A stretch of DNA of 62,939 nt, counting the filler. It is 18 parts of 18 records of this genome, joined end to end, with 100 filler letters (N's around TTAATTAATTAA, not from the genome) between each part and the next. Parts side by side here need not be neighbours in the genome. Positions count along the whole stretch, not along the records: positions 7,316 to 9,509 come from SRR11831580_496; positions 9,610 to 12,097 come from SRR11831580_501; 16 more parts are not named here. One strand, given 5' to 3'. A program made the translations under genes and the position numbers. This document shows positions 1 through 40,546 of the stretch, one piece after another. Under the pieces are notes generated by a model that saw only the letters and a list, made by a program, of their open reading frames with translations, was not told where the DNA came from and did not search any database. Within the stretch, counting starts at the first letter, position 1; every line of letters starts with the position of its first letter.

Positions 1-231
1 GGGCGTCAGAAAGGGCATGCCGAGCTGTACCGGGGGGCGGAATACAGCGTCAATTTCCTGCCAAAAGTAAAAATTGATGTGGCGATTGCTGATGACCAAC
101 TCGATGAAGTGATCGATATCGTCAGTAAGGCGGCTTACACCGGAAAAATTGGCGACGGCAAAATCTTCGTCGCTGAATTGCAACGCGTCATTCGTATTCG
201 TACCGGCGAAGCCGACGAAGCGGCGCTGTAA
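1..231 (+). CDS. glnK: Nitrogen regulatory protein PII-2 (5' truncated)
   Basis: Frame 1 reads GRQKGHAELYRGAEYSVNFLPK...TGKIGDGKIF...EAAL*; directly upstream of amtB. Confidence 0.97.
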   Translation, partial: GRQKGHAELYRGAEYSVNFLPKVKIDVAIADDQLDEVIDIVSKAAYTGKIGDGKIFVAELQRVIRIRTGEADEAAL

Positions 232-260
232 TCTCTGGCACACAGCAACAGGAACGAAAA

Positions 261-1547
261 ATGAAGATAGCGACGATAAAAACTGGGCTTGCTTCACTGG
301 CGATGCTTCCGGGACTGGTAATGGCTGCACCTGCGGTGGCCGATAAAGCCGACAATGCGTTTATGATGATTTGTACTGCGCTGGTGCTGTTTATGACTAT
401 TCCGGGGATTGCCCTGTTTTACGGTGGGTTGATTCGCGGCAAAAACGTGCTGTCGATGCTGACGCAGGTGACGGTGACATTTGCACTGGTCTGTATTCTC
501 TGGGTGGTTTACGGTTACTCGCTGGCGTTTGGTGAGGGCAACAACTTCTTCGGCAACATTAACTGGTTGATGCTGAAAAACATCGAACTGACGGCGGTGA
601 TGGGCAGCATTTATCAGTATATCCACGTGGCGTTTCAGGGATCGTTTGCCTGCATTACCGTCGGCTTGATAGTTGGGGCGCTGGCGGAACGAATCCGCTT
701 CTCAGCTGTGTTGATTTTCGTGGTGGTATGGCTGACGCTCTCTTACATTCCGATTGCGCATATGGTGTGGGGCGGTGGTTTGCTGGCTTCTCACGGTGCG
801 CTGGATTTCGCGGGTGGCACCGTGGTGCACATTAACGCCGCAATCGCCGGTCTGGTGGGCGCGTATCTGATAGGAAAACGCGTGGGCTTCGGTAAAGAGG
901 CGTTTAAACCGCACAACCTGCCGATGGTCTTCACCGGGACTGCCATTCTCTATATCGGTTGGTTTGGCTTTAACGCCGGGTCAGCGGGCACGGCGAATGA
1001 AATCGCGGCACTGGCATTTGTGAATACTGTGGTCGCAACGGCGGCGGCAATTCTTGGCTGGATCTTCGGTGAATGGGCGCTGCGTGGTAAGCCTTCACTG
1101 CTGGGGGCGTGTTCTGGCGCGATTGCCGGTCTGGTCGGCGTGACGCCAGCCTGCGGCTACATTGGGGTTGGCGGCGCGTTGATTATCGGCGTGGTAGCTG
1201 GTCTGGCGGGCTTGTGGGGCGTTACCATGCTCAAACGCTTGCTGCGGGTGGATGATCCCTGCGATGTCTTCGGTGTGCACGGCGTTTGTGGCATTGTCGG
1301 CTGTATCATGACCGGGATTTTTGCCGCCAGCTCGCTGGGCGGCGTGGGCTTCGCTGAAGGTGTGACGATGGGCCATCAGTTGCTGGTACAGCTGGAAAGC
1401 ATCGCCATTACGATCGTCTGGTCCGGTGTTGTGGCATTTATCGGCTACAAATTGGCGGATCTGACGGTTGGTCTGCGTGTACCGGAAGAGCAGGAGCGAG
1501 AAGGGCTGGATGTCAACAGCCACGGCGAGAATGCCTATAACGCGTAA
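261..1547 (+). CDS. amtB: Ammonium transporter AmtB
   Basis: 428 aa; DFAGGTVVH motif; signal peptide MKIATIKTG; in the glnK operon. Confidence 0.99.
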   Translation: MKIATIKTGLASLAMLPGLVMAAPAVADKADNAFMMICTALVLFMTIPGIALFYGGLIRGKNVLSMLTQVTVTFALVCILWVVYGYSLAFGEGNNFFGNINWLMLKNIELTAVMGSIYQYIHVAFQGSFACITVGLIVGALAERIRFSAVLIFVVVWLTLSYIPIAHMVWGGGLLASHGALDFAGGTVVHINAAIAGLVGAYLIGKRVGFGKEAFKPHNLPMVFTGTAILYIGWFGFNAGSAGTANEIAALAFVNTVVATAAAILGWIFGEWALRGKPSLLGACSGAIAGLVGVTPACGYIGVGGALIIGVVAGLAGLWGVTMLKRLLRVDDPCDVFGVHGVCGIVGCIMTGIFAASSLGGVGFAEGVTMGHQLLVQLESIAITIVWSGVVAFIGYKLADLTVGLRVPEEQEREGLDVNSHGENAYNA

Positions 1548-1557
1548 CAAGCACTGC

Positions 1558-1597
1558 AAAAAACAGCCGGACGGTTTTCACCTCCGGCTATTTTTTT
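1558..1597. terminator. Bidirectional intrinsic terminator between amtB and tesB
   Basis: A-run, AGCCGGA...TCCGGCT hairpin, T-run. Confidence 0.75.
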
Positions 1598-2456
1598 AAT
1601 TGTGATTACGCATCACCCCTTCCTGAACGGTCGAGGCAACCAGTACGCCGTCTTGGGTATAAAACTCACCGCGCACAAAGCCACGTGCGCTGGACGCCGA
1701 GGTGCTCTCCACGCTATACAGCAGCCATTCATTCAAATTAAACGGGCGATGGAACCACATGGAATGGTCAATGGTGGCAATCTGAATCCCCGGTTCGAGA
1801 AAACCGATGCCGTGCGGCTGTAGAGCTACCGGCAGGAAGTTAAGATCAGAAGCGTAACCGAGCAGATACTGATGAACGCGCAGGTCATCCGGCACGCTAC
1901 CATTTGCGCGGATCCACACCTGACGATGTGGTTCTGCGACGTGACCTTTCAGTGGGTTATGAAACTCCACCGGACGGACTTCCAGCGGACGATCGCAGAT
2001 GAATTTATCTTTCAGCACTGGCGGCAGCAGGTGCGCCAGCGATTGGGCGATTTGCGTTTCCGAAGGGAGGCCATCAGGCGCTGGCGCGGACGGCATTGTT
2101 TTTTGATGTTCGAAACCCGCTTCTGGTGCCTGGAAAGAGGCAGTCATATAAAAAATCGGTTTGCCGTTTTGAATAGCAGCAACCCGGCGGGCGCTGAAGC
2201 TGTTACCGTCACGCAGCGTTTCGACATCATAAATAATCGGCTTCTTACTATCGCCAGGGCGAAGAAAGTAGCTGTGAAACGAATGTACCAGCCGCTCTTC
2301 AGGGACGGTCTCTTTTGCAGCATACAAGGCCTGACCCACGACCTGGCCGCCAAACACCTGGCGTAAACCTAAATCTTCACTCTGGCCGCGAAAGAGTCCT
2401 TCCTCAATTTTTTCCAGATTTAACAATGTCAGTAAATTTTTTAGCGCCTGACTCAT
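1596..2456 (-). CDS. tesB: Acyl-CoA thioesterase II
   Basis: MSQALKNLL...[11 protein letters not shown]; 286 aa from the second Met of the ORF. Confidence 0.98.
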
Positions 2457-2673
2457 ATAACTCTCCAGTAACAAAGCTGCCGCAGCAAGCCAAAGTGAGT
2501 TGAGTATAACGCAAATTTGCTACTGGTCCGATGGGTGCAATGGTCTGAATTACGGGCTAATTACAGGCAGAAATGCGTGATGTGTGCCACACTTGTTGAC
2601 GTTACTATTTTGTTAACCACTCTTCCGGCGAGGAAAGTTAGCCCGCTGGTGCATTGATAATAAGGAGAAATGA

Positions 2674-3246
2674 ATGAAACTCGTGCACATGGCCAGTGGT
2701 TTAGCGGTTGCGATTGCGTTGGCGGCTTGCGCAGATAAAAGCGCGGATATTCAGACGCCAGCACCGGCTGCAAATACGTCTATTTCAGCAACACAACAAC
2801 CAGCTATCCAGCAACCGAATGTCTCCGGTACCGTCTGGATCCGTCAGAAAGTCGCACTGCCGCCTGATGCTGTGCTGACCGTGACACTTTCTGACGCGTC
2901 GTTAGCCGATGCACCGTCAAAAGTGCTGGCGCAGAAAGCGGTGCGTACTGAAGGTAAACAGTCACCATTCAGCTTTGTTCTGTCATTTAACCCGGCAGAT
3001 GTTCAGCCGAACGCGCGTATTCTGTTGAGTGCGGCGATTACCGTGAATGACAAACTGGTATTTATCACCGATACCGTTCAGCCGGTGATCAACCAGGGCG
3101 GAACTAAAGCCGACCTGACATTGGTGCCGGTACAGCAAACCGCCGTGCCGGTTCAGGCCAGCGGTGGCGCAACGACTACCGTACCTTCGACTTCACCAAC
3201 TCAGGTGAATCCGTCTTCGGCAGTTCCAGCTCCTACGCAATATTAA
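2674..3246 (+). CDS. ybaY: Lipoprotein YbaY
   Basis: Lipobox LAAC; 190 aa; synteny. Confidence 0.95.
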   Translation: MKLVHMASGLAVAIALAACADKSADIQTPAPAANTSISATQQPAIQQPNVSGTVWIRQKVALPPDAVLTVTLSDASLADAPSKVLAQKAVRTEGKQSPFSFVLSFNPADVQPNARILLSAAITVNDKLVFITDTVQPVINQGGTKADLTLVPVQQTAVPVQASGGATTTVPSTSPTQVNPSSAVPAPTQY

Positions 3247-3252
3247 GCGACG

Positions 3253-3280
3253 TTAACCCTCTCCGCCCGGAGAGGGTTAG
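3253..3280. terminator. Hairpin between convergent ybaY and atl
   Basis: TAACCCTCTCCG-CC-CGGAGAGGGTTA inverted repeat. Confidence 0.6.
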
Positions 3281-3666
3281 TAGTTCCAGCGATAACGCTG
3301 CAAGTCGATTTGCCCGCTTCCCGATACCATCACACCTTCTGCCAGTAATGCCTGTCGCTGACGCTGTAAATCCGGTCCGGTTAGCGAAATTGTGCCGTGG
3401 CGATTAACCACCCGGTGCCAGGGTAAGGTGCTGCCTTCAGGGAGACGCTTTAACACACCGCCCACCTGGCGCGCGGCGCGGGGCGATCCCGCCAGTTTCG
3501 CCACATCACCGTAAGTGGTGACATAGCCTTCGGGAATAGCGGCGACGATTTGCCAGACGCGTTGGGGAAATGAATCTTCTTTTTCCATCTTTTCTTCCTG
3601 AGGTAATTTTTCAGCATAATCTGGAAAAACGCCCGAGTGAAGTCGCATTGCGCAAGAAACCAGCAT
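3277..3666 (-). CDS. atl: Alkyltransferase-like DNA base-flipping protein (YbaZ)
   Basis: PWHRV motif (Trp replacing the catalytic Cys of alkyltransferases); start codon uncertain. Confidence 0.93.
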   Translation of the reverse strand: MLVSCAMRLHSGVFPDYAEKLPQEEKMEKEDSFPQRVWQIVAAIPEGYVTTYGDVAKLAGSPRAARQVGGVLKRLPEGSTLPWHRVVNRHGTISLTGPDLQRQRQALLAEGVMVSGSGQIDLQRYRWNY

Positions 3667-3742
3667 CTGGCACGCGATGGGTTGCAATTAGCCGGGGCAG
3701 CAGTGATAATGCGCCTGCGCGTTGGTTCTCAACGCTCTCAAT

Positions 3743-3856
3743 GGGGGCTCTGTTGGTTCTCCCGCAACGCTACTCTGTTTACCAGGTCAGGTCCGGAAGG
3801 AAGCAGCCAAGGCAGATGACGCGTGTGCCGGGATGTAGCTGGCAGGGCCCCCACCC
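3743..3856 (+). ncRNA. ffs: 4.5S SRP RNA
   Basis: 114 nt GGGGGCTCTGTTGG...CAGGTCCGGAAGGAAGCAG...GGGCCCCCACCC containing the SRP helix-8 motif. Confidence 0.98.
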
Positions 3857-3966
3857 ATTTCTGCCTCCCACCGTTTCGTCAAAAAATCCCAACATGGCTA
3901 AACTTTAACCACAACTGACGTCGCAAGAATTGTCTGGCTGCGCAGTACGCTTCGGAGGTATGTCTG

Positions 3967-4320
3967 ATGAAGTATGTTGATGGTTTTGTGGTTGCCGTTC
4001 CTGCCGATAAAAAGGATGCCTATCGGGAAATGGCCGCTAAGGCTGCGCCATTGTTTAAAGAGTTTGGCGCGCTTCGTATTGTCGAATGCTGGGCCAGCGA
4101 TGTACCGGATGGCAAAGTGACCGATTTTCGTATGGCGGTGAAAGCGGAAGAGAATGAAGAGGTTGTCTTTAGCTGGATTGAATACCCTTCAAAAGAGGTC
4201 CGCGACGCTGCTAATCAAAAGATGATGTCGGACCCACGGATGAAAGAGTTCGGCGAGTCCATGCCGTTTGACGGCAAGCGAATGATCTATGGCGGATTCG
4301 AGTCAATCATCGACGAATAG
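3967..4320 (+). CDS. ybaA: DUF1428 family protein YbaA
   Basis: MKYVDGFVVAVP...MPFDGKRMIYGGF. Confidence 0.95.
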   Translation: MKYVDGFVVAVPADKKDAYREMAAKAAPLFKEFGALRIVECWASDVPDGKVTDFRMAVKAEENEEVVFSWIEYPSKEVRDAANQKMMSDPRMKEFGESMPFDGKRMIYGGFESIIDE

Positions 4321-4361
4321 GTAGCGTGACGGGCTGTGCGGCGTGCCGTCAGCCCAAAAAT

Positions 4362-5911
4362 TCACAAATGTTGCTCGGCCCAGCGTAAGAAATCTTCTTT
4401 CGGTAATGCCTTGCTGTAGAGCCAGCCCTGACCGTAGTGCACGCCATGCTGGCGTAACCACTCTTCTTGTTTACTGGTTTCGATTCCCTCCGCTACCATT
4501 TTCAGTTTCAGTGTTTTTGCCATTTCGATGATATGCGGCGTGACATTTTTATATTCCAGCGCATCAACGAAAGATTTATCGATCTTCAGAATGTCGACAT
4601 CCAGATCCTGTAAATAACTTAAACTTGAATACCCCGTACCAAAATCATCAAGATAAATTTCATGGCCCGCCTCCCGGTAGCGAGAAATTATCGGGGCGCT
4701 GGTTTTCGGATCGGCAAACTCGCGTTCAGTGAGTTCAAGCGCGATCTGTCTGGGATTAACCTGATAGTGATTGATCATGTCACGCAGCAATTGCGGGATT
4801 TTTTCCGAGGTGAGCACGGGGGATTCAAGATTGATCGAAATATGCTGCTGTGGATGCTGACGCAGCCAGTCGCCCATATCTTCAAAGACGCTTCTTATAA
4901 TCAGTAGCGTCAATGGCTCAGAAAGGCCCGTTTGCTGTGCCAGCGGAATAAAACTATCTGGTGACAACCAACTACCGTCTGTCTGCGGCCAGCGCGCCAG
5001 TGCCTCAGCACCGACAATTTTGCCATTGGCTAAGGAGACAATCGGCTGATAGTGCACGCAAATATCACGATTTTCGATAGCATCCTGCAGCCGATGATGC
5101 GGTGACTGAATACGGCGCAAAATACGCAGCACAAACATCGCTGCCAGCAGGCCAATCACCAACCCGAGCGGTAACCAAATAAAGACTTGCCGATGCCAGC
5201 CTTTCTGCAACATTTTCGTTGAAGCCCATGTGATGATCGAAATATTCATCTCCGGTAAGGGCAGGATATCGTAAATGATTCCATTATTTTCGATATGCTC
5301 ACCGGGTGTTTTTGTAGCCTGGTAATAATTCCCTGAGCAATTTCATCGCTGCTGGTTATGACAACGTTATGGGCATTGCCAATAATGGCGGCATCAATTT
5401 GCCATGAGCTATAGGGAATGACATCAATAAAGGAAGCGGGGTCGATCATGACGACATAATGTGCCGTTCCCATGGCGACCATGTAACGGATAATGCCTAA
5501 ATCGTTATGCGATGTTAACCAGACACGATAACCATCTTTCGAAATTTTACCTGGCTCGGGGAAGGTATCGGGCGGACTTTCATGCTCCAGAGACGAACAC
5601 TGGGGAACGTTGTTATCGATATAAGCCACTTCCTGAATATAGCGATAACTGTAAGATACCCGACGCATTTCCATGAGATGGGCTTCGCTACAGGCAGCGC
5701 CTTGCCATCTTTCCAGCTCCTGCAGCGCATCTTTCCCTTGTGTCGCCACCTTATTGGCTCGAATAGCGACGCGGGAGGAATAGGTATCCAGCTCTTCAAT
5801 AAACGATGTTTCTACCTGCTGATGGGCCAGCCAGATGCTTAAGCCGACAGGCAGCAATACTGAAAGAATCAGTACTCCCGAAATAAGGCCGACCAGATGT
5901 CGTGTTCTCAC
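4362..5911 (-). CDS. pdeB: CSS-EAL c-di-GMP phosphodiesterase (YlaB); split by a probable sequencing frameshift
   Basis: CSS motif in the N-half ORF; EAL and DDFGTGYSS in the C-half ORF; frames rejoin if the T5 run at 5309-5313 is T6. Confidence 0.93.
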
Positions 5912-6074
5912 CAGCATATCCTTATTAACACAGTGTAGGGAAAGTATATCTGATTGTGGAAAAAGGCTGGCTGGAGATAAGGAGGTAGAGCTGGTATTTC
6001 ATGAAGTGATGGGTGGAAACGATCATTGTCATTTGACCAGGCGCAGAGCTTTACGCCTGGTATGTAACCCTAAC

Positions 6075-6545
6075 TTAAGATGTTGATTCGGCGCGAGCGA
6101 GGGTAAAAATATCGTAAAAAGACAGTTCACCTTTACGGACGATCATTTTTTGCAGTTGTTCCTTATGAACATCCGCGACACGCGGAGAGTTCAAGATGGC
6201 TTCAACCAGCGCGGCAGGTACAAAGCGCGTGTTGTACCATTCGCCGTTATAGCAAACGCGGAAATCCAGCACGTCGATATCTTCATAGCGGTAGCGTGGG
6301 TAGACATCGAAAAAGAAGAAACCATTAAGCAGGATAAATAATACAACCAGTAGCCAGACAGAGCCTGACAGCGTTTCGGACTGCAACATCACCGCCAGGG
6401 TGGCAAAAAAAGCAACGTACATACCGATAAACAGCCCCGGATGTTTACGGATAAAACTGATACTAAAGCGGGGTTTGTTGTCGCGTTTTTCGCGGGTATT
6501 CAGAGACTCAATCGTTTCGGTCAGCAGGCGTTGTATTTCGGTCAT
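6075..6545 (-). CDS. ylaC: Inner membrane protein YlaC
   Basis: [12 protein letters not shown], 156 aa, two hydrophobic segments, synteny. Confidence 0.92.
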
Positions 6546-6660
6546 CGTTTGCCTTCGTGGTATCTGCAACTTTCCAGGGAACACCCTATTTTAACGTGGG
6601 AATAGTAGAGGGGAAGTAACAGATCTACCACAATTTTGCATAACAGTTGCGAAAAACCGA

Positions 6661-7211
6661 TTACAATTTTTAATTATTCTGGCTGGATTACCGCCCACGA
6701 CAACGTTGTCCGGGACATCTTTTGTGACAACTGCACCTGAGGCTACCACGACGTTATCACCAATGGTCACACCAGGGTTAATGACCGCGCGTCCGCCAAT
6801 CCAGACGTTATTACCGATGGTGACGGGTTTCCCCAGTTCAGCACCGCTATTACGTGCTACAGGGTCGATGGGATGTGTTGCCGTGTAGATATGAACGCCT
6901 GGTGCCAACATACAGTTATCACCGATGCGAATAGGGCAGACATCAAGCATCACGCAATCGAAGTTGGCGAAAAAATTATTACCGAGAAAAATGTTATAGC
7001 CATAGTCACAGCGAAACGTTGGCTCAATATAAGCCTCTGTCACCTGACCGAATAGATCAGCGAGAATTTGCTGGCGTAATGTGTGCTCTTCCGCCAGGGA
7101 ATGATTGTATCGGTGAATAAGCTGACGAGCGCGCAGGCGATCGCGAGATAACGTCTCATCTGCCGAGCGATACAACTCACCAGCAATCATCTTTTCTTTT
7201 TCTGTGCTCAT
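6661..7211 (-). CDS. maa: Maltose O-acetyltransferase; the read-through C-terminus is a probable homopolymer error
   Basis: Hexapeptide repeats; ends ARIIKKL* if T5 at 6667-6671 is T6. Confidence 0.95.
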
Positions 7212-7215
7212 TACT

Positions 7216-7315
7216 NNNNNNNNNNNNNNNNNNNNNNNNNNNNNNNNNNNNNNNNNNNNTTAATTAATTAANNNNNNNNNNNNNNNNNNNNNNNNNNNNN
7301 NNNNNNNNNNNNNNN
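7216..7315. other. Artificial contig spacer (first of 17)
   Basis: 44N+TTAATTAATTAA+44N, which stops all six frames. Also at 9510, 12098, 14362, 18934, 21173, 23761, 26902, 29451, 33060, 35603, 40547, 48872, 51405, 54040, 56517 and 60356, each 100 nt. Confidence 0.99.
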
Positions 7316-8005
7316 CCTCAGCCATAGTTCCTCTCAGGCGGGCACCTCAATCATGCGAGGGTCCGCGAAAAGATGGTCGGCGGGGCAGCCAAGGCGAGAC
7401 ACAAGGAGGCAAGCGCGGTCGCAAGCACGCAAGCGACGTGAATTCTTAAAAATTTTAGTCAGAGATGTCCATGTTGGGGCATGAACGTGGTGTTTGGCCC
7501 GATACATACACAAACAGAACATCGCCGATCGCCGCGCAACAGGAAACTGTCCTCGCACGACCTGCACCGCACGTCGGTGCGCAACAGGGGGAATGTACAT
7601 CGCGAGCATGGTGCGTGATTCGACCGCAATTTTCACTGCTGCATTAAACGAACTTGCGGCAATGCAGAAATCCATCTGATGCGGAGATGAGCCCTTGGGA
7701 ATGGGCTGCAAGTCCACCAGGTTCGCAGCGGCGGGAATACGCTCTAAATGAGGCTTGTTTCCAGGACTCACGATTCGTCGTGTCGTTCTGCTTCCCGCGT
7801 GTTAACACGTGCCAGCCCTTTGTGTCACGTGTGTGTGTTGTGTTCTACAAAGCAAAGCAGAAGCTCGACATGTCAAGCTTTCGACGATTCTTTTTGTTCG
7901 CGAAGGTCTTGTCAGGGTCCCATAACCAAAGTGGCACCAATCTATAAAACGGTGCGTGGGCCGCGCTGCCGCAGTTTCAAAGTTGAGTTAGTACCGCGCA
8001 CAATT

Positions 8006-9498
8006 ATGATGCGATCCGCGGAAGAAGAAGCCAAGGTCCGAGAGCTGCTCTCCGGAAAGACCACCGCTATGCCGGTGTCCCTGAACGCTCTCCAGGTGCG
8101 TCATCTGCTTCCGACATTTGGGCGCGGAACCTCATACAAAGCTGTAGGTGCTTGCGAAGCGGTACCTGTTGAAGGAGCTTGATGGGACGGTCCTTGAAAA
8201 CCCTGAGGAAATGTTTGATCGCGTGTCCAAGCGTCTAGCGGAAGTGGAGCGAAATTACAACGCTACAGGTACGCAGTTTGTTTTTCCAGCCACGCGTTGA
8301 ATGGACTTTGCTCACGCTTTGTAGAGGAGGAGGTGGCTACCCTTCATCAGCAGTTCTACGAGATCATGTGGAATATGGAGTTTACACCTGCTGGTCGCAC
8401 TTTGGCCAATTGCGGTGGACCTACTAAGACTGTTCCCAACTGCATCGTCCTGCACATTGAGGACAACATGGAGTCCATCTTTGGCACATTGTACCAAGCT
8501 GCCCTTCTCCAGAAGGATGGTTCAGGTGCGAACTCGGTCTGCGTCTGTCTCCATCGTCTCTGACTGTTTGCAGGGCTGGGATTCCCGCTTCATCTCATGC
8601 GACCGGCCGGTACTATCACCAAGCGGTCCTTTGGCTCGTCATCCGGCCCCGTATCCTTCCTGCATGTGTACAACACTGCGTTCGGCGTCATCAAGCAGCA
8701 GAACCGCAACGGCGCTAACATGGCTGTGATGGCCGGTACGACCTCTCCCCCTGTGGCTCCCCTCCGTCTTTCTCTCTGCTACGCGCTCAGTCTTTTTTTA
8801 TTCCGTTTCTTTGCAAACGTTCTCATTCCCCGTTCCCCCGCCCGCATGTAGTATCGCACCCCGATATTCTGGAGTTTATCCACTGCAAGGACGTAGAGGG
8901 ATCCATCCGCAACTTTAACGTCTCTGTGGGACTTACGGCCGAGTTCATGACGCAAGTCGAGGCCAACACACCCACCCCGTGGATGTGGTACGCTACGATA
9001 CACAGTGTGATTCTCTCACTCATGTATATGCTTGTGCTTTCGTATGCAACTCTGTGTCTGTACTCATACGCTCTTGCCGTGTAGCGAGTTCAAGGGTGAG
9101 AAGATGCTCCCACGCCGCATTGTGCGCGACGGCAACTATAACATCCTCTCCATCACCCCCGTCGAAATGACCGCGCGGCAGATCTTTGACGAGATCGTGC
9201 ACAGCGCGTGGAACATGGGCGAGCCAGGCTGCGTCTTCCTCGACACGGTCAACGATGACAACCCCTTGCCCGGGCTTGGGCGTATTGAGGCGTGCAATCC
9301 GTGCGGGGAGCAGTTCTTACACGACGGCGACGTGTGCAACCTGGGCAGCATCAACCTCGAGAAGATGGTGAAGGACGGTGCGGTGGATTTTGACCGTCTC
9401 CGGCATGTGGTGCGCCTGTCGGTGCGGCTGCTGGACAACGTGATCGATATGTCCGAGTTCAGTGTGGAGAAGGTGGCCAACGTGTTCCGAAACAACCG
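8006..9498 (+). CDS. Intron-containing eukaryotic class II (adenosylcobalamin-dependent, NrdJ-type) ribonucleotide reductase, 3' truncated
   Basis: Exons 8006-8095, 8148-8268, 8325-8525, 8574-8735, 8852-8987, 9085-9498 joined by GT-AG introns give one open frame. Motifs: [59 protein letters not shown]. Confidence 0.88.
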
Positions 9499-9630
9499 GT
9501 ACGTGGCTTNNNNNNNNNNNNNNNNNNNNNNNNNNNNNNNNNNNNNNNNNNNNTTAATTAATTAANNNNNNNNNNNNNNNNNNNNNNNNNNNNNNNNNNN
9601 NNNNNNNNNCCCCCCAGACAGTGTACGTAC

Positions 9631-10613
9631 GCAAACAACGCAGTCATGGCCGTGTGCAGGTCGTCGTAATACTTGCGATCAAACAGCCGCACCACCGTGT
9701 CAAAGCCAAGGATAAAGTAAATCTGGACCTGCGCACCTGTTTGTGCGTGGCAGACATAAGCACATATACACATATATAACACATACACATAAACACGGGG
9801 CGGAAGAGAGTCAAGTCGGTACGGAAGGCAATACGGTCAACGATTGAGAAGCACAACACACAAATGAAAACTGAGTCACGAGGCGCCTACATGTTGGTTC
9901 TGATCTTTGCTAAACGTACCGTACACATCGTGCAACGCGGAGGCCTTATCCACAAAGCGTCCATGTGCAGTCACACCTGTGTGTCAGTATACCAGCAAGA
10001 CGATGAGAGACGTACACATCAAAACACTCCCGCACGCATGCACCAGACACACACACACACGCCCACACATGCAGTGTATCAAGATACAGTCAAACGCACA
10101 ATGTGAAGCGTTACGAAGGCACTCTCCATAAGAATGGCCATCCACGGAAACACAGACACGCAGCACAGACAGTTTGACCTTCCCAGTGAAAGCACACATA
10201 TATATGGGCACGCACGACTGCCGCACACGTGCCTACAGCGCTATGAGGTCGGCGCTCGGCCAGAATCTGCATCATCTCCACGCGTTGCAGAAGACTTGCC
10301 CCAAACACGCCCTTGTCCACGTTCGACTTGGCGAGCAGGAACACAGCCTGATCGAAATGAAACATAGTCTCTGCCGTGTTGAGCAGATGCAAATGGGCTC
10401 TGTGCGATACAATACCGTACCATGTGAGTGAGGACAAGAAGGTATTACGAACGCGGAGAAGAGATTGTACTTGGTCGGCGGATTGAATGAGCTATCCAGC
10501 ACGCCCACACGGGCAACCGATCGATTGCTATCGTCAAGTTTGAAGGGAAATTTCACTTCGGGTTTGCCGTCCCGATCAAGTGAGTCGAGCACAGATGCGA
10601 TGGTGGATTGCAT
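9631..10613 (-). CDS. Intron-containing Pof1-like nicotinamide-nucleotide adenylyltransferase / cytidylyltransferase-fold protein, 3' truncated
   Basis: Exons 10613-10471, 10399-10233 (or -10227), 9976-9920, 9736-9631. Motifs: VLDSSFNPPTKAH, NVDK, RFVDK, GFDTVVRLFDRKYY. Confidence 0.8.
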
Positions 10614-10926
10614 GAAGAAACGGTTACAAGCAACGTGCTTAATGAACGAATGAGATAATTTTGCAGCCAGAAGCATGCCCGCTCTCTCTTAGAATATGAG
10701 AAAACATCATCGATGCGAATGTTCATTCAGATGCACAAGCATGTCGGAAACTTCCGGGATTCTTCCTGCCCAAATCCACATCGACATCGATAATGGTTCG
10801 TCTTTACTTGAAAGCCTTCGTCAATTACATACCCATCCCACACACGACCAAGCATACGCATCCACACACACGCACACCTCACAGCAAATCCGCGAGGGCG
10901 TGCGCACCCAAAAACCCACGTTTTCT

Positions 10927-11883
10927 TCACTCCTCCGGCACAAACATTTTCAGCACGGTGTGCATAAACCCGAGTGATTCTTGGCGTGCGAACGTGATGC
11001 TGCTGCCTGCTTGCAAGAACTCAGGCACCACAGCAGCGGGCAGTCCCACATGCAGCGTGGTGTAGTCATAGTCGCCTTCGAGCGTCTCGGACAGGGCAAA
11101 CTTGAAAACTGCGCAGAATACCGTGGAGGCAGTGTGAGAAAGCAGTAGAGAAAGAACATGAAGCGGGGAATATTGCTGTTTGGTGTGGCAAGATGCACGA
11201 GACACCAGTTCATCAAAGAATATGATAGAACCACACACACAAGTCGATTATGTCAGCAACCAAGCAGAAAGATTATACACAATACACCAATGCCGCACAT
11301 ACCCTTCTCTTTATCTGCAGAGGCACATGTAATGTGTGTGCTTCCCAGCGGGCCCGGTGCCACGGTCATGCCCGTAAGGTCGCGGAACAGGTTCACTAGG
11401 AGTACATGTCAGTACGGAAACACACGAGAGCGTTGTGTGGTGACAGTGCGAAGGGTGAAATAGACTTCCACGCAAACATGAACTGCGTATATAGAGTTGG
11501 TAAGAGGTTGGTCGGTGTGTATGGGTCTGTATGCATATGCTCTGTTGGTATAGAGTGGCTAGTGCAATTGTGGTTCAGCGAAACAGAACGCAACACTTTG
11601 TTTGCCACTGAATACAATGATGTACAGCGAACCTTAACAAATATCAATGAAATACATCGAAGAATGGACGGCTGTACCGCGTACATGTGTTACGTTTGAT
11701 GAAAGCAAAGAACCATACTCAATCCCATTCACATCACCCACGTACATTTGTTCTCTGCCTCCAACAGGCTGTTTTTGAGGACGGACAGCTCACGGACAGC
11801 TGTCTGGGCCGATGCACTGTTGTCCAACTGCTTCTTGAGGCGCGCGTTTTCTGTGCGCAGATGTTCCACCACCTTACTTTGCG
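10927..11883 (-). CDS. Coiled-coil plus RWD-like protein resembling monopolin Csm1/Pcs1, 5' incomplete
   Basis: Exons 11883-11746, 11395-11303, 11108-10927 splice in phase 1 to QSKVVEHLRTENARLKKQL...ENKLNLFRDLTGM...VFKFAL...Y...PEFL...ITF; a further exon (TTEAE) is likely near 12065-12097. Confidence 0.55.
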
Positions 11884-12197
11884 CTGCGAGCAGCAGTGGA
11901 AAGCGACCGTTAGCATCAAGGCCATAGATATAAGAAGCCGGACACCAAATCATAGAGGTAGCGCGACGCAAGACGCGCGCATGACAGAGACACGAAACAC
12001 CTAAATCCCAAGACAAACGAACGCATAGTTTGATCTGTTCTGTCTTTCAGTTGGATCGTCATACCTGTCTCTGCCTCCGTTGTGTGCTTCGCCGCATNNN
12101 NNNNNNNNNNNNNNNNNNNNNNNNNNNNNNNNNNNNNNNNNTTAATTAATTAANNNNNNNNNNNNNNNNNNNNNNNNNNNNNNNNNNNNNNNNNNNN

Positions 12198-12223: not shown

Positions 12224-12254
12224 AATAAATAACAACTAACAGGGAGTAAAGGCG

Positions 12255-13481
12255 ATGGGAATTAACGAAATCATCATGTACATCATGATGTTCTTTATGC
12301 TGATAGCTGCCGTAGACAGGATCCTGTCGCAGTTCGGCGGTTCTGCTCGTTTCCTCGGTAAGTTCGGTAAAAGTATCGAAGGATCAGGCGGTCAGTTCGA
12401 AGAAGGCTTTATGGCAATGGGCGCACTGGGCCTGGCGATGGTCGGTATGACCGCGCTGGCACCGGTACTGGCTCACGTTCTCGGGCCGGTAATTATTCCG
12501 GTTTACGAAATGCTCGGCGCTAACCCATCGATGTTCGCCGGAACACTGCTGGCGTGCGATATGGGCGGCTTCTTCCTCGCCAAAGAGCTGGCGGGCGGCG
12601 ACGTAGCCGCGTGGCTATACTCTGGGTTAATTCTCGGGTCGATGATGGGGCCAACGATTGTGTTTTCCATTCCGGTGGCGCTCGGCATTATCGAACCTTC
12701 TGACCGTCGTTATCTGGCGCTCGGCGTGCTGGCGGGCATTGTGACCATTCCGATTGGTTGTATCGCTGGTGGTCTGGTTGCTATGTACTCCGGTGTGCAG
12801 ATCAACGGCCAGCCGGTGGAATTCACTTTCGCCCTGATCCTGATGAACATGATCCCGGTGATCATTGTTGCGATTCTGGTGGCGCTGGGGCTGAAATTCA
12901 TCCCGGAAAAAATGATCAACGGCTTCCAGATCTTCGCCAAATTCCTCGTTGCATTGATCACCCTCGGTCTTGCCGCTGCGGTAGTGAAATTCCTGCTTGG
13001 CTGGGAACTGATCCCCGGTCTGGATCCTATCTTTATGGCCCCTGGCGATAAACCCGGTGAGGTGATGCGCGCCATTGAAGTTATCGGTTCTATCTCCTGC
13101 GTTCTGTTAGGGGCGTATCCGATGGTGCTGCTGCTGACTCGCTGGTTTGAAAAACCGCTGATGAGCGTCGGTAAAGTACTGAATATGAACAACATCGCGG
13201 CAGCCGGCATGGTGGCAACGCTTGCCAACAACATCCCGATGTTCGGCATGATGAAGCAGATGGATACCCGCGGCAAAGTCATCAACTGCGCCTTCGCCGT
13301 TTCCGCTGCTTTCGCCCTGGGCGACCACTTAGGCTTCGCCGCTGCCAACATGAACGCCATGATCTTCCCGATGATTGTCGGCAAGTTGATCGGCGGCGTA
13401 ACGGCGATTGGCGTGGCGATGATGCTGGTGCCAAAAGAAGACGCGACCGCGACTAAAACCGAAGCGGAGGCACAATCGTGA
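12255..13481 (+). CDS. eutH: Ethanolamine permease EutH
   Basis: 408-aa hydrophobic protein MGINEIIMYIMM; upstream of eutA. Confidence 0.97.
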   Translation: MGINEIIMYIMMFFMLIAAVDRILSQFGGSARFLGKFGKSIEGSGGQFEEGFMAMGALGLAMVGMTALAPVLAHVLGPVIIPVYEMLGANPSMFAGTLLACDMGGFFLAKELAGGDVAAWLYSGLILGSMMGPTIVFSIPVALGIIEPSDRRYLALGVLAGIVTIPIGCIAGGLVAMYSGVQINGQPVEFTFALILMNMIPVIIVAILVALGLKFIPEKMINGFQIFAKFLVALITLGLAAAVVKFLLGWELIPGLDPIFMAPGDKPGEVMRAIEVIGSISCVLLGAYPMVLLLTRWFEKPLMSVGKVLNMNNIAAAGMVATLANNIPMFGMMKQMDTRGKVINCAFAVSAAFALGDHLGFAAANMNAMIFPMIVGKLIGGVTAIGVAMMLVPKEDATATKTEAEAQS

Positions 13482-14461: not shown

Positions 14462-14484
14462 GAGAGTAGGGAACTGCCAGGCAT
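14462..14484 (+). rRNA. rrfE: 3' end of 5S rRNA (rrnE operon by context)
   Basis: GAGAGTAGGGAACTGCCAGGCAT is the 5S 3' terminus; followed by yjaA. Confidence 0.9.
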
Positions 14485-14491
14485 CAAATTA

Positions 14492-14524
14492 GAAAAACCC
14501 CGGTCCATAAGGCCGGGGTTTTTT
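14492..14524 (+). terminator. rrn operon terminator
   Basis: AAAAACCCCGG-TCCATAAGG-CCGGGGTTTTTT. Confidence 0.8.
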
Positions 14525-14558
14525 GCATATCAATTATTTGCATGATGAAGGGAATCTC

Positions 14559-14941
14559 ATGTCAGTTCTGTATATCCAAATTCGTCGTAATCAAATTACT
14601 GTTCGCGATCTTGAAAGCAAACGTGAAGTGTCAGGAGACGCTGCCTTCAGTAACCAGCGCCTGTTAATCGCCAATTTCTTTGTTGCAGAAAAAGTTCTGC
14701 AAGATCTTGTTCTGCAACTCCACCCACGTTCAACCTGGCATTCTTTTTGCCAGCAAAACGTATGGATATTGTTGTGAGCGCACTGGAAATGAATGAGGGC
14801 GGTTTGTCACAGGTTGAGGAACGCATTCTCCATGAAGTGGTCGCTGGGGCAACGTTAATGAAATATCGCCAGTTCCACATCCATGCGCAATCAGCGGTAC
14901 TCAGTGATAGTGCGGTCATGGCAATGCTTAAGCAGAAATAA
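14559..14941 (+). CDS. yjaA: Stress response protein YjaA; split by a probable homopolymer error
   Basis: MSVLYIQIRRN; the two ORFs join if T5 at 14744-14748 is T6. Confidence 0.88.
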
Positions 14942-15003
14942 TCGTGTCACCATTGGTGGGTACTAAACCTGAAGTTCAGCCCACCGGGATGAGAAAAAAT
15001 CGC

Positions 15004-15447
15004 CTACGCCCCCACATACGCCAGATTCAGCAACGGATACGGTTTCCCCAAATCGTCCACCTCAGAGCGTCCCGTAACCTTAAAACCCACCTTCTTATAG
15101 AACCCAACCGCCTGCTCATTTTGCTCATTAACGTTGGTTGTCAGTTCCGGTGCCATCGAGAGCGCATGCTCCACCAGCACCCGACCTACGCCGCAGCCGC
15201 GCACATCAGGATCGATAAACAGCGCATCCATATGCTGCCCACTTAGCAACATAAATCCAACCGGCTGATCCCGCTCATTAACCGCGACCCACAACGGCGC
15301 TTCCGGCAGGAAGGAACGAACTAGGTCCTCCAGCTCGGTCCGATACTCTGCTGATAGAAAATCGTGAGTGGCATCGACAGAACGACACCAAATCGCAACG
15401 AGTTCCTCCCCTTCCTCATGCCGTGAGCGGCGAATACTAATAACCAT
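15004..15447 (-). CDS. yjaB: GNAT acetyltransferase YjaB
   Basis: RGCGVG motif A; 147 aa. Confidence 0.95.
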   Translation of the reverse strand: MVISIRRSRHEEGEELVAIWCRSVDATHDFLSAEYRTELEDLVRSFLPEAPLWVAVNERDQPVGFMLLSGQHMDALFIDPDVRGCGVGRVLVEHALSMAPELTTNVNEQNEQAVGFYKKVGFKVTGRSEVDDLGKPYPLLNLAYVGA

Positions 15448-15552
15448 TTTCTCTCCTTTTAGTCATTCTTATATTCTAACGTAGTCTTTTCCTTGAAACT
15501 TTCTCACCTTCAACATGCAGGCTCGACATTGGCAAATTTTCTGGTTATCTTC

Positions 15553-15584
15553 AGCTATCTGGATGTCTAAACGTATAAGCGTAT
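15553..15584 (+). promoter_or_regulatory. Four tandem MetJ (Met) boxes
   Basis: AGCTATCT GGATGTCT AAACGTAT AAGCGTAT, 8-mers resembling AGACGTCT, upstream of metA. Confidence 0.8.
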
Positions 15585-15603
15585 GTAGTGAGGTAATCAG
15601 GTT

Positions 15604-16533
15604 ATGCCGATTCGTGTGCCGGACGAGCTACCCGCCGTCAATTTCTTGCGTGAAGAAAACGTCTTTGTGATGACAACTTCTCGTGCGTCTGGTCAGGAAA
15701 TTCGTCCACTTAAGGTTCTGATCCTTAACCTGATGCCGAAGAAGATTGAAACTGAAAATCAGTTTCTGCGCCTGCTTTCAAACTCACCTTTGCAGGTCGA
15801 TATTCAGCTGTTGCGCATCGATTCCCGTGAATCGCGCAACACGCCCGCAGAGCATCTGAACAACTTCTACTGTAACTTTGAAGATATTCAGGATCAGAAC
15901 TTTGACGGTTTGATTGTAACTGGTGCGCCGCTGGGCCTGGTGGAGTTTAATGATGTCGCTTACTGGCCGCAGATCAAACAGGTGCTGGAGTGGTCGAAAG
16001 ATCACGTCACCTCGACGCTGTTTGTCTGCTGGGCGGTACAGGCCGCGCTCAATATCCTCTACGGCATTCCTAAGCAAACTCGCACCGAAAAACTCTCTGG
16101 CGTTTACGAGCATCATATTCTCCATCCTCATGCGCTTCTGACGCGTGGCTTTGATGATTCATTCCTGGCACCGCATTCGCGCTATGCTGACTTTCCGGCA
16201 GCGTTGATTCGTGATTACACCGATCTGGAAATTCTGGCAGAGACGGAAGAAGGGGATGCATATCTGTTTGCCAGTAAAGATAAGCGCATTGCCTTTGTGA
16301 CGGGCCATCCCGAATATGATGCGCAAACGCTGGCGCAGGAATTTTTCCGCGATGTGGAAGCCGGACTAGACCCGGATGTACCGTATAACTATTTCCCGCA
16401 CAATGATCCGCAAAATACACCGCGAGCGAGCTGGCGTAGTCACGGTAATTTACTGTTTACCAACTGGCTCAACTATTACGTCTACCAGATCACGCCATAC
16501 GATCTACGGCACATGAATCCAACGCTGGATTAA
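15604..16533 (+). CDS. metA: Homoserine O-succinyltransferase
   Basis: [14 protein letters not shown] catalytic Cys; GHPEY. Confidence 0.99.
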
Positions 16534-16577
16534 TCTTCTGTGATAGTCGATCGTTAAGCGATTCAGCACCTTACCTC

Positions 16578-16601
16578 AGGCACCTTCGGGTGCCTTTTTT
16601 A
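16578..16601 (+). terminator. metA terminator
   Basis: AGGCACC-TTCG-GGTGCCT-TTTTT. Confidence 0.85.
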
Positions 16602-16676
16602 TTTCCGAAACGTACCTCAGCAGGTGAATAAATTTTATTCATATTGTTATCAACAAGTTATCAAGTATTTTTAATT

Positions 16677-16707
16677 AAAATGGAAATTGTTTTTGATTTT
16701 GCATTTT
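16677..16707 (+). promoter_or_regulatory. IclR operator / aceBAK promoter region
   Basis: AAAATGGAAATTGTTTTTGATTTTGCATTTT imperfect palindrome upstream of aceB. Confidence 0.65.
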
Positions 16708-16801
16708 AAATGAGTAGTCTTAGTTGTGCTGAACGAAAAGAGCACAACGATCCTTCGTTCACAGTGGGGAAGTTTTCGGATCCATGACGAGGAGCTGCAC
16801 G

Positions 16802-18403
16802 ATGACTGAACAGGCAACAACAACCGATGAACTGGCTTTCACAAGGCCGTATGGCGAGCAGGAGAAGCAAATTCTTACTGCCGAAGCGGTAGAATTTCTG
16901 ACTGAGCTGGTGACGCATTTTACGCCACAACGCAATAAACTTCTGGCAGCGCGCATTCAGCAGCAGCAAGATATTGATAACGGAACGTTGCCTGATTTTA
17001 TTTCGGAAACAGCTTCCATTCGCGATGCTGATTGGAAAATTCGCGGGATTCCTGCGGACTTAGAAGACCGCCGCGTAGAGATAACTGGCCCGGTAGAGCG
17101 CAAGATGGTGATCAACGCGCTCAACGCCAATGTGAAAGTCTTTATGGCCGATTTCGAAGATTCACTGGCACCAGACTGGAACAAAGTGATCGACGGGCAA
17201 ATTAACCTGCGTGATGCGGTTAACGGCACCATCAGTTACACCAATGAAGCAGGCAAAATTTACCAGCTCAAGCCCAATCCAGCGGTTTTGATTTGTCGGG
17301 TACGCGGTCTGCACTTGCCGGAAAAACATGTCACCTGGCGTGGTGAGGCAATCCCCGGCAGCCTGTTTGATTTTGCGCTCTATTTCTTCCACAACTATCA
17401 GGCACTGTTGGCAAAGGGCAGTGGTCCCTATTTCTATCTGCCGAAAACCCAGTCCTGGCAGGAAGCGGCCTGGTGGAGCGAAGTCTTCAGCTATGCAGAA
17501 GATCGCTTTAATCTGCCGCGCGGCACCATCAAGGCGACGTTGCTGATTGAAACGCTGCCCGCCGTGTTCCAGATGGATGAAATCCTTCACGCGCTGCGTG
17601 ACCATATTGTTGGTCTGAACTGCGGTCGTTGGGATTACATCTTCAGCTATATCAAAACGTTGAAAAACTATCCCGATCGCGTCCTGCCAGACAGACAGGC
17701 AGTGACGATGGATAAACCATTCCTGAATGCTTACTCACGCCTGTTGATTAAAACCTGCCATAAACGCGGTGCTTTTGCGATGGGCGGCATGGCGGCGTTT
17801 ATTCCGAGCAAAGATGAAGAGCACAATAACCAGGTGCTCAACAAAGTAAAAGCGGATAAATCGCTGGAAGCCAATAACGGTCACGATGGCACATGGATCG
17901 CTCACCCAGGCCTTGCGGACACGGCAATGGCGGTATTCAACGACATTCTCGGCTCCCGTAAAAATCAGCTTGAAGTGATGCGCGAACAAGACGCGCCGAT
18001 TACTGCCGATCAGCTGCTGGCACCTTGTGATGGTGAACGCACCGAAGAAGGTATGCGCGCCAACATTCGCGTGGCTGTGCAGTACATCGAAGCGTGGATC
18101 TCTGGCAACGGCTGTGTGCCGATTTATGGCCTGATGGAAGATGCGGCGACGGCTGAAATTTCCCGTACCTCGATCTGGCAGTGGATCCATCATCAAAAAA
18201 CGTTGAGCAATGGCAAACCGGTGACCAAAGCCTTGTTCCGCCAGATGCTGGGCGAAGAGATGAAAGTCATTGCCAGCGAACTGGGCGAAGAACGTTTCTC
18301 CCAGGGGCGTTTTGACGATGCCGCACGCTTGATGGAACAGATCACCACTTCCGATGAGTTAATTGATTTCCTGACCCTGCCAGGCTACCGCCTGTTAGCG
18401 TAA
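16802..18403 (+). CDS. aceB: Malate synthase A
   Basis: [20 protein letters not shown]; 533 aa. Confidence 0.99.
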
Positions 18404-18432
18404 ACCACCACATAACTATGGAGCATCTGCAC

Positions 18433-18933
18433 ATGAAAACCCGTACACAACAAATTGAAGAATTACAGAAAGAGTGGACTCAACCGCGTTGGGAAGGCAT
18501 TACTCGCCCATACAGTGCGGAAGATGTGGTGAAATTACGCGGTTCAGTCAATCCTGAATGCACGCTGGCGCAACTGGGCGCAGCGAAAATGTGGCGTCTG
18601 CTGCACGGTGAGTCGAAAAAAGGCTACATCAACAGCCTCGGCGCACTGACTGGCGGTCAGGCGCTGCAACAGGCGAAAGCGGGTATTGAAGCAGTCTATC
18701 TGTCGGGATGGCAGGTAGCGGCGGACGCTAACCTGGCGGCCAGCATGTATCCGGATCAGTCGCTCTATCCGGCAAACTCGGTGCCAGCTGTGGTGGAGCG
18801 GATCAACAACACCTTCCGTCGTGCCGATCAGATCCAATGGTCCGCGGGCATTGAGCCGGGCGATCCGCGCTATGTCGATTACTTCCTGCCGATCGTTGCC
18901 GATGCGGAAGCCGGTTTTGGCGGTGTCCTGAAT
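18433..18933 (+). CDS. aceA: Isocitrate lyase (3' truncated)
   Basis: [21 protein letters not shown]. Confidence 0.98.
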
Positions 18934-21090: not shown

Positions 21091-21144
21091 CTACAGCAAA
21101 ACATTCATCAGTGAGCCGCTGTACACAGCAAACACCCAGGGAAC

Positions 21145-23860: not shown

Positions 23861-23885
23861 ATGTATGCTATACGAAGTTATTACG
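23861..23885 (+). other. 454 Titanium paired-end linker remnant (loxP-derived)
   Basis: ATGTATGCTATACGAAGTTATTACG at contig start; same sequence at 33160-33185 and 56617-56641. Confidence 0.9.
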
Positions 23886-23890
23886 TATTA

Positions 23891-30589: not shown

Positions 30590-30649
30590 AACTCTGTTTC
30601 CTTATTTTGAAATTCAATGCCGGAAAGCTGCGCCTCCGGCCAACAAAAC

Positions 30650-31426: not shown

Positions 31427-31433
31427 TGCACCC

Positions 31434-32438: not shown

Positions 32439-32525
32439 CGGGGCTATTCACCTTCTTATGTCTGGTTGCCAGGTTAAACGTAAAACATTCACCTTACGGC
32501 TGGTGGGTTTTATTACGCTCAACGT

Positions 32526-32570
32526 TAGTGTATTTTTATTCATAAATACTGCATGAATATTGATACTATC
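32526..32570. promoter_or_regulatory. Tandem ARG boxes in the divergent argE/argC control region
   Basis: AGTGTATTTTTATTCATA and CATGAATATTGATACT resemble the ArgR consensus TGAATwwwwATTCA. Confidence 0.65.
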
Positions 32571-32591
32571 ATGACCAGAGGTGTGTCAACA

Positions 32592-33159: not shown

Positions 33160-33185
33160 AATGTATGCTATACGAAGTTATTACG
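33160..33185 (+). other. 454 paired-end linker remnant
   Basis: AATGTATGCTATACGAAGTTATTACG at contig start. Confidence 0.9.
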
Positions 33186-35602
<2,417 letters not shown>

Positions 35603-36002: not shown

Positions 36003-36016
36003 TTGATATTTATCAA
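36003..36016. promoter_or_regulatory. FNR box upstream of cydA
   Basis: Perfect TTGAT-N4-ATCAA; a second imperfect site at 36055-36068. Confidence 0.85.
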
Positions 36017-37919: not shown

Positions 37920-37934
37920 GACAGGAGTCGTCAA

Positions 37935-39074: not shown

Positions 39075-39088
39075 GTAAGGAGCTAAAA

Positions 39089-39644: not shown

Positions 39645-40546
<902 letters not shown>

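Follow-up and report, generated by a model that had tools for sequence, protein, structure and literature searches.

Why would a ribonucleotide reductase (RNR) of the vitamin B12-dependent kind be encoded by a gene that is broken up by introns of nuclear style? The question is raised by positions 8006-9509 of a 62,939-base stretch of DNA (hereafter the window, by which we mean the whole stretch that was analysed), for which an original prediction had proposed a "bacterial-type" class II RNR domesticated in a protist nucleus and carrying spliceosomal introns. Here we have followed up this proposal through profile scoring of the individual exons, comparison with homologues and solved structures, phylogenetic trees, and a survey of the rest of the window. 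We arrive at a probability of roughly 0.87 that 8006-9509 is the 5' half (374 of ~700 codons) of a bacterivorous protist's nuclear gene for NrdJ, a class II, adenosylcobalamin (AdoCbl)-dependent RNR, of the dimeric type.

Gene structure and splicing

The gene lies on the plus strand of a 2194-nucleotide (nt) contig (c2, 7316-9509), and it ends at 9509 because the contig ends there. All five of its complete GT-AG introns fall exactly where they had originally been placed, and the expected run of ~374 uninterrupted codons is borne out: the six joined exons make up 1124 nt, or 374 codons, with zero stops, and the frame left unspliced stops after 58 codons. Exon 1 (8006-8095, 30 codons) begins ATG ATG and encodes an N-terminus that lacks an ATP-cone; it has no Pfam or NCBIfam match of its own, and it aligns with the N-termini of the homologues P0001 and P0002. 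Following intron 1 (8096-8147, 52 nt, GTGCGT..TGTAG), exon 2 (8148-8268) encodes the all-alpha N domain of RNR (PF00317, 34.3 bits). Intron 2 (8269-8324, 56 nt, GTACGC..TGTAG), which contains an in-frame stop, leads into exon 3 (8325-8525), where the NCIVL motif begins at spliced residue 109 and its Cys (nt 8441-8443) is residue 110. Intron 3 (8526-8573, 48 nt, GTGCGA..TGCAG) has a length that is a multiple of 3 yet carries an in-frame TGA, and the barrel domain starts in the exon 4 that follows it (8574-8735; PF02867, 28.1 bits; positions 112-163 of the model NrdJ_Z). Beyond the pyrimidine-rich intron 4 (8736-8851, 116 nt, GTACGA..TGTAG), exon 5 (8852-8987) encodes HPDILEFI at residue 194 (46.9 bits to NF006417), and beyond intron 5 (8988-9084, 97 nt, GTACGC..TGTAG), exon 6 (9085-9498; PF02867, 108.7 bits; NF006417, 147.1 bits) encodes GEPG at residue 282, NPCGEQ at residue 308 (9296-9313, Cys 9302-9304) and CNLGSINL at residue 321 (Cys 9335-9337).

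The five interruptions share a single style. All five run from GT to AG over 48-116 nt, with GTRCG donors (5/5) and YAG acceptors (5/5; TGTAG in four, TGCAG in one), and four of the five have pyrimidine-rich 3' ends. Read from the upstream exon, an in-frame stop is met inside four of the five introns; the remaining one throws the reading out of frame, and a stop follows directly beyond it. Base composition is 0.567 GC in the exons (0.743 at third codon positions, GC3) and 0.515 in the introns. Furthermore, the spliced protein aligns with seven homologues with 0 gaps at all five junctions, and identity over the full 374 residues reaches 285/374 (76.2%) to P0001 and 258/374 to P0002; tblastn with these two proteins returned collinear pieces only within 8012-9508 and none elsewhere in the window. 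Such a splice pattern joined to such collinearity is far beyond chance, and the interruptions behave as spliceosomal introns of the U2-type, GT-AG kind.

A sixth intron is probable at 9499, as had been suggested. The donor at 9499-9504, GTACGT, follows a split Arg codon and fits the GTRCG pattern of the other five; left unspliced, the frame would read N-N-R-Y-V-A, which departs from the N-R-R-L/V/I-G-L-G of the homologues. This intron stays probable because just 11 nt of it, GTACGTGGCTT (9499-9509), remain before the contig end. At the other end of the gene, a possible TATA box (TATAAAA, 7943-7949, plus strand), proposed from its letters, stands 57 nt 5' of the ATG.

Class and subtype of the encoded reductase

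The spliced protein matches PF00317 over exons 2-3 and PF02867 over exons 3-6 (profile positions 2-277 of 523), the remainder of the barrel falling past the contig end. Scoring of the exons against models of the RNR classes, a check that had been proposed with the original prediction, put B12-dependent NCBIfam models on top in each of the five scoring exons, whose matches run collinearly along NF006417 (positions 20-57, 60-123, 127-178, 182-219 and 233-345 of 759). The per-exon bits sum to 316.5 for NF006417, 271.6 for NrdJ_Z (TIGR02504), 91.0 for the class I model NrdE_NrdA and 32.3 for RTPR, the monomeric class II model; for exon 6 by itself, NrdJ_Z scores 138.7 bits versus 68.9 for NrdE_NrdA. 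P0001, the full-length orthologue at 76% identity, passes the NCBIfam cut-off for NrdJ_Z (611.5 against 399.95) and fails that for NrdE_NrdA (318.2 against 341.05), as likewise do three further homologues (P0100, P0124 and P0039). The assignment to class II rather than class I thus stands, and it agrees with the best structural match.

That match, to exon 6, is the B12-dependent RNR of Thermotoga maritima (PDB 1xje; 84 bits, E 9.1e-23), ungapped, with query residues 28-134 lying on chain residues 277-383; the class I chains in PDB (human and yeast R1) score 30-31 bits on the same exon. Spliced residues N308, C310, E312 and C321 sit opposite residues 320, 322, 324 and 333 of the T. maritima chain. 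When exon 3 was compared with PDB directly, its top matches were spurious WD40 repeats, and the Cys of NCIVL (C110) was therefore mapped through C116 of P0001, in the gap-free alignment of the two proteins, onto T. maritima C134. The three motifs put forward as holding catalytic cysteines, NCIVL, NPCGEQ and CNLGSINL, are thus all present and line up with Cys 134, 322 and 333. We take C134, C322, C333, N320 and E324 to be the catalytic residues of the T. maritima enzyme; by this alignment, the active-site set is kept whole in the window gene, with the redox Cys pair, the thiyl-radical Cys in the NPCGE finger loop, the Asn and the Glu.

No match to the ATP-cone family PF03477 was found in the encoded protein, whose N-terminus aligns with those of cone-less homologues. 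The orthologues carry the cobalamin-binding C-terminal half and end in a Cys-rich tail, CPxC..EGCxSCxxCGxSxC, of the zinc-finger kind that has been reported for 71% of the dimeric enzymes of class II (PMC9669993). The lead of NrdJ_Z over both RTPR and the class I model, together with the residue mapping to T. maritima, therefore supports a class II enzyme of the dimeric NrdJ subtype, as judged from the predicted protein, and not of the monomeric type usual in eukaryotes.

Relatives and phylogeny

A search with exon 6 scored 8000 candidates, of which 7794 matched at E <= 1e-10; the best among the matches listed was P0001 (77%), a 716-residue transcript of the malawimonad Gefionella okellyi in EukProt (EP00698_P015749). 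Other protists follow: P0100 is from Cavostelium apophysatum by cluster look-up, the P0049 cluster includes Paramoeba aestuarina, P0182 is a transcript from MMETSP, and P0039 and P0057 are both from Anaeramoeba ignava. Another member of that cluster, P0125, covers just the 137 residues of a last exon, at the C-terminus of a Paramoeba-like NrdJ; it was called on a contig of 228 kb, and this hints at introns in that genomic copy as well. The Cavostelium protein has an extra ~36 residues at its N-terminus, rich in Arg, Ser and Leu and absent from the others, which could be a targeting peptide. Among the matches listed, the nearest named prokaryotes are the DPANN archaea Woese-, Nano- and Aenigmarchaeota together with Patescibacteria, at 57-70% identity.

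Trees were built from rows chosen by similarity (from the best 120 in each of two sets, of 7794 and of 1872 matches), after 7 intein-bearing rows and 8 rows shorter than 590 residues had been dropped; they are unrooted, and their unnamed rows may belong to either domain. The window gene is sister to Gefionella within a protist-bearing clade in all four. Support for the pair with Gefionella and for the clade was 99 and 100 (13 rows) in a FastTree analysis of 106 rows, and 99 and 99 (13 rows) in a quick IQ-TREE search of 51 rows. A quick search of 63 rows that included 11 loci from GTDB gave 99 for the pair and 91 for a clade of 14 rows, with 0 GTDB loci inside it, and a careful IQ-TREE search of 46 rows by 674 columns gave 100/99 for the pair and 99/97 for a clade of 16 rows. 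These 16 rows, in which the window gene and Gefionella are joined by Cavostelium, Paramoeba and the MMETSP protist, comprise 5 named eukaryotes, 11 unnamed rows and 0 named prokaryotes. The Anaeramoeba pair and two unnamed rows adjoin this set in the careful tree, where the split between 7/7 known-eukaryotic rows and 11/11 named prokaryotic rows has a support of 84/84. Constraining the 14-row clade to include Anaeramoeba gave a likelihood 8.4 units above that of the free quick search and was not rejected in the approximately unbiased (AU) test (p-AU 0.67), the constrained group having been named after the tree was seen.

Environmental and reference genomes were scanned as well. Of 575 candidate stretches picked out of metagenomes with exon 6, 414 code for related proteins, at 70% identity or less; a scan of GTDB genomes with an alignment of the clade gave 599 stretches, of which 594 code for related proteins, at up to 59%. 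One of the GTDB loci, L016, was left out of the tree with its frame broken under translation table 11, and none of the 11 that were added fell within the eukaryote-bearing clade. The metagenome locus at 70% (L105) was considered as an intron-bearing relative and rejected as a prokaryote-type gene with an upstream extension, a frame break and no intron. Its frame changes at 1650-1771, with 12 residues missing between two matching pieces, and this break looks like a frameshift or an assembly error.

Two parts of the original wording need adjustment in this light. "Bacterial-type" holds insofar as the enzyme is a class II NrdJ, and is too narrow insofar as the nearest named prokaryotes are DPANN archaea as well as Patescibacteria. 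Similarly, the idea of a prokaryote-derived gene domesticated in a protist survives as an intron-bearing nuclear gene, one that is no lone recent transfer, the clade including transcripts of other protists.

Composition of the window

The window consists of 18 unrelated contigs (2.1-8.2 kb) held together by 17 identical linkers of 100 nt, each made of 44 N, TTAATTAATTAA and another 44 N; those flanking the gene-bearing contig lie at 7216-7315 and 9510-9609. Genes on opposite sides of a linker are not genomic neighbours. A bacterial genome of 5.2 Mb in one contig (G001) contains 48% of the window's sampled words, and a nucleotide comparison with it over bases 1-60000, which end short of contig c18 (60456 on), sorts the contigs into several groups. 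Six (c5, c10, c12, c13, c15 and c17) have stretches 100% identical to G001, at 14462-18933, 29551-33059, 36003-40546, 42628-47988, 51505-53315 and 56641-60000. The first of these, the aceBA-metA region on c5, is 4472 nt long, 100% identical to Escherichia coli K-12 MG1655 and matched in 5426 of 5426 E. coli genomes, which is a sign that the protist sample contained a food bacterium or carry-over from the laboratory. Contigs c1, c14 and c16 and parts of c13 match G001 at 65-91% (including 1-7215, 48972-51404 and 54140-56516), and it is therefore apparent that a second, related enterobacterium-like organism is present. Contig c4 shares with G001 repeats of ~30 nt alone, and seven contigs (c2, c3, c6, c7, c8, c9 and c11) show zero match to it in this comparison. 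A search of G001 with PF02867 found just that genome's own reductase loci, which are irrelevant to the gene contig.

On frame statistics, a eukaryotic look is confined to c2, c3, c6 and c7, which have no or very few frames of at least 150 residues and are alike in GC content (0.50-0.55). A kinesin motor-domain exon lies on c6 (20963-21091, minus strand; PF00225, 48 bits), flanked by ..ctgtag and gtattg in an intron style akin to that of the NrdJ gene, and the last exon of a separase gene, with the end of Peptidase_C50, lies on c7 (22698-22892, minus strand). The separase exon matched 51 proteins at E <= 0.001 among 96 candidates, many of the named ones being separase or separin; its best public identity is 63-65%, mostly to fishes and unnamed contigs, so that for this gene the eukaryote appears to be one without a close sequenced relative. 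Contig c3 (9610-12097), eukaryotic in look, abounds in CA/TG repeats, and its frames are broken up; no Pfam family was found in the five frames tried, and an exon resembling nicotinamide mononucleotide adenylyltransferase was an impression that found no support.

The remaining features belong to bacterial or other sources. At gathering score, an Rfam scan of the whole window returned one transfer RNA and one signal recognition particle (SRP) RNA and nothing else, ribosomal RNA included; the SRP RNA is of bacterial type and lies on c1 (3751-3847). The contig that shares with G001 the ~30-nt repeats alone is itself bacterial and encodes the ethanolamine-utilisation permease EutH (12240-13478, plus strand, 438.5 bits). 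The eut pathway employs a B12-dependent lyase, so corrinoids would be handled by a co-occurring bacterium. An 898-residue frame for a Cas3 HD-helicase (23861-26554, plus strand; Cas3_HD, 152 bits) sits on a contig of 42.5% GC without a match in G001, and that contig derives from yet another source. An 810-residue frame at 33171-35600 (minus strand), open at both contig ends and likewise without a G001 match, carries an inverse-autotransporter beta domain, an invasin D3 domain and Big_1 repeats, and looks like an adhesin of the intimin/invasin type.

Taken together, the E. coli-identical contigs (at least six), the other bacterial ones and the eukaryote-like ones lead us to conclude that the DNA of the sample comes from a protist together with E. 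coli and one or more further bacteria, brought together in culture or at sequencing. The argument that introns rule out bacterial contamination accordingly keeps its force for the gene-bearing contig and does not extend beyond it, the window being a chain of contigs from a mixed culture.

Alternative explanations

Several points weigh against a protist's nuclear gene for dimeric NrdJ. About half of the gene is on the contig, which breaks off at 9509, before the part that binds cobalamin, the C-terminal tail and the stop codon; the 271.6 bits summed for NrdJ_Z fall short of the 399.95 set for a whole protein, as half a protein (374 residues) would be expected to do. Splicing is predicted, having been read from genomic sequence alone, and the pyrimidine tract of intron 1 is weak (0.40). 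Cofactor use and dimer state, too, are properties assigned here from the sequence of the protein and its relatives. Finally, the contig is 2.2 kb long, has no linked marker and comes from a window that mixes organisms, and the malawimonad affinity is that of this one gene, the separase exon having given no malawimonad. The eukaryotic genes on other contigs of the window, with their kinesin and separase exons, count on the other side.

Among the alternatives, the one that survives best, and that we nevertheless hold to be improbable, is that the gene, though eukaryotic in type, has as its owner not the target organism of the assembly but something else in the mixed culture: a minor eukaryote, a giant virus or an integrated viral element. 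At least three sources contribute to the window (E. coli-identical, enterobacterial-like at 65-91%, and eukaryotic), the contig is short and unlinked, and the 690 nt upstream of the gene hold no recognisable gene, a 155-residue minus-strand frame at 7334-7801 having no Pfam family. The evidence that runs the other way is not decisive: the acceptor on the kinesin contig (..ctgtag) resembles those of the NrdJ gene, c2, c3, c6 and c7 are similar in GC, and the nearest relatives are transcripts of cellular protists.

We regard it as more improbable still that the locus is a decaying or unexpressed copy, or that the remainder of the gene is absent. Such a pseudogene would sit well with our seeing the 5' half alone, from genomic sequence, and the role of the class II enzyme in Dictyostelium has been termed enigmatic (PMC3605638); however, the 374 spliced codons are free of stops and frameshifts, all catalytic residues are kept, the protein is 76% identical to a transcribed orthologue, codon bias is strong (GC3 0.743), and the gene's end coincides with the end of the contig, not with a lesion.

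Two further explanations have next to no chance of being correct. Although about half of the window is bacterial, the contig can hardly be a piece of prokaryotic or phage DNA whose nrdJ carries group I or II self-splicing introns or inteins: it has no match in G001; self-splicing introns are excluded because 0 Rfam families match it at E <= 1, the interruptions of 48-116 nt being moreover too short for group I/II introns and having their GTRCG..YAG pattern in common; and inteins are excluded by insert size and frame behaviour, the inserts not being in frame, with lengths that are not multiples of 3 in four of five and read-through stops in all five. That the usual large subunit of eukaryotic class I enzymes (RRM1) has been mistaken for class II might be suggested by PF02867 and PF00317, which are common to both classes, and by the 68.9 bits of NrdE_NrdA on exon 6, but it is contradicted by B12-dependent models scoring highest in every scoring exon, by 30-31 bits for PDB class I chains versus 84 for T. 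maritima NrdJ, by orthologues that pass the NrdJ_Z cut-off and fail that of NrdE_NrdA, by the lack of an ATP-cone, and by the named proteins among the matches listed (best 120 of 7794), all of which are called AdoCbl- or B12-dependent or carry a generic "alpha chain" label.

Proposed mechanism

For the dimeric NrdJ that we favour, the established chemistry of the family, summarised for class II RNRs in PMC3019208, predicts the following course. Homolysis of AdoCbl would yield a 5'-deoxyadenosyl radical that oxidises the finger-loop Cys to a thiyl radical, which in turn would take the 3'-hydrogen from a ribonucleoside diphosphate. The Cys pair would give the electrons and would be re-reduced via the C-terminal, Cys-rich zinc-finger tail, which is present in the orthologues and would lie beyond this contig. 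Neither a beta subunit nor oxygen would be required. Because eukaryotes do not make corrinoid, the cofactor's corrinoid would come from bacteria, plausibly prey. The cobalamin uptake and the use under low oxygen that the original prediction put forward are inferences of the same kind. Furthermore, an enzyme with no ATP-cone would have no on/off switch worked by deoxyadenosine triphosphate (dATP), and its choice of substrate would be governed from the dimer interface.

Comparison with known reductases

The T. maritima NrdJ (PDB 1XJE/1XJK), a solved dimeric class II RNR, is the best structural match, and its N320, C322, E324 and C333 are shared with the window gene. The former is bacterial and intron-free, whereas the latter is eukaryotic with five or six spliceosomal introns, and the window gene's orthologues differ from the T. 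maritima enzyme in their C-terminal linker and Cys-rich tail. The Gefionella protein is the closest counterpart, being the window gene's sister in every tree, alignable over all 374 residues with no gap and likewise devoid of an ATP-cone; at 76% identity, the window organism is evidently not Gefionella itself. The Gefionella sequence is an assembled transcript only, for which contamination could be suspected, whereas the window offers a genomic copy with introns.

The Anaeramoeba class II RNR is also a protist NrdJ that we classify, from its model scores, as dimeric-type (NrdJ_Z 597.6 versus RTPR 93.4 bits). It is just 57% identical to the window protein and adjoins the 16-row clade but lies outside it; according to a 2024 study, it came from bacteria and is linked to B12 that symbionts supply (PMC11550330). 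Elsewhere among eukaryotes, class II RNRs have been reported from Euglena, dictyostelids, Phytophthora, Monosiga, non-Dikarya fungi, haptophytes and chlorarachniophytes (PMC3019208, PMC3605638, PMC8085122, 10.1101/2023.06.07.544158), and these are described as monomeric or, in fungi and algae, were detected with monomeric-type references. Such enzymes share with the window gene the cofactor class and a patchy, transfer-prone distribution; they differ in being like that of Lactobacillus leichmannii, with an insert that mimics the dimer, and the window protein scores 32.3 bits with RTPR versus 138.7 with NrdJ_Z. The nrdJ of Dictyostelium discoideum is given as intron-free, and Dictyostelium also has a class I enzyme (PMC3605638).

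In 2010, the sole eukaryotic dimeric class II RNR known was that of Trichomonas vaginalis, which was called extremely divergent (PMC3019208). A full-text literature search brought up no description of a dimeric class II RNR from malawimonads or Amoebozoa, though subscription journals or supplements may hold one; the one paper in which the words "malawimonad" and "ribonucleotide reductase" occur together (PMC10733785) deals with dCTP deaminases.

Meaning for the organism and the enzyme family

Class II RNR in eukaryotes is already known, and the gene described here adds to its rarer, dimeric subtype, of which the orthologues are public but apparently undiscussed. Published accounts of the dimeric type cover Trichomonas and Anaeramoeba (PMC3019208; PMC11550330); its other eukaryotic examples are unannotated transcripts, which are mistakable for bacterial carry-over. 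With five spliceosomal introns in a genomic copy, this enzyme lineage is shown to be truly nuclear. For the organism itself, B12-dependent, oxygen-independent synthesis of deoxyribonucleoside triphosphates would be extended to the bearer of a relative of the malawimonad enzyme, and any annotation of the assembly must reckon with a mixture of protist and bacteria.

The gene is also a data point on the reductases carried by early eukaryotes. A wider reading, which we think unlikely at present, is that of a eukaryote-wide clade of dimeric, ATP-cone-less class II RNRs that takes in malawimonads, the Amoebozoa Cavostelium and Paramoeba, the marine MMETSP protist and the metamonad Anaeramoeba, and whose nearest named relatives are DPANN archaea. 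Lundin et al. (PMC3019208) left the possibility of such an enzyme in early eukaryotes open for want of eukaryotic sequences. Were this wider reading true, with the unnamed rows eukaryotic and the clade old and not passed among protists, dimeric class II RNR could date to early eukaryotes or to their archaeal ancestor.

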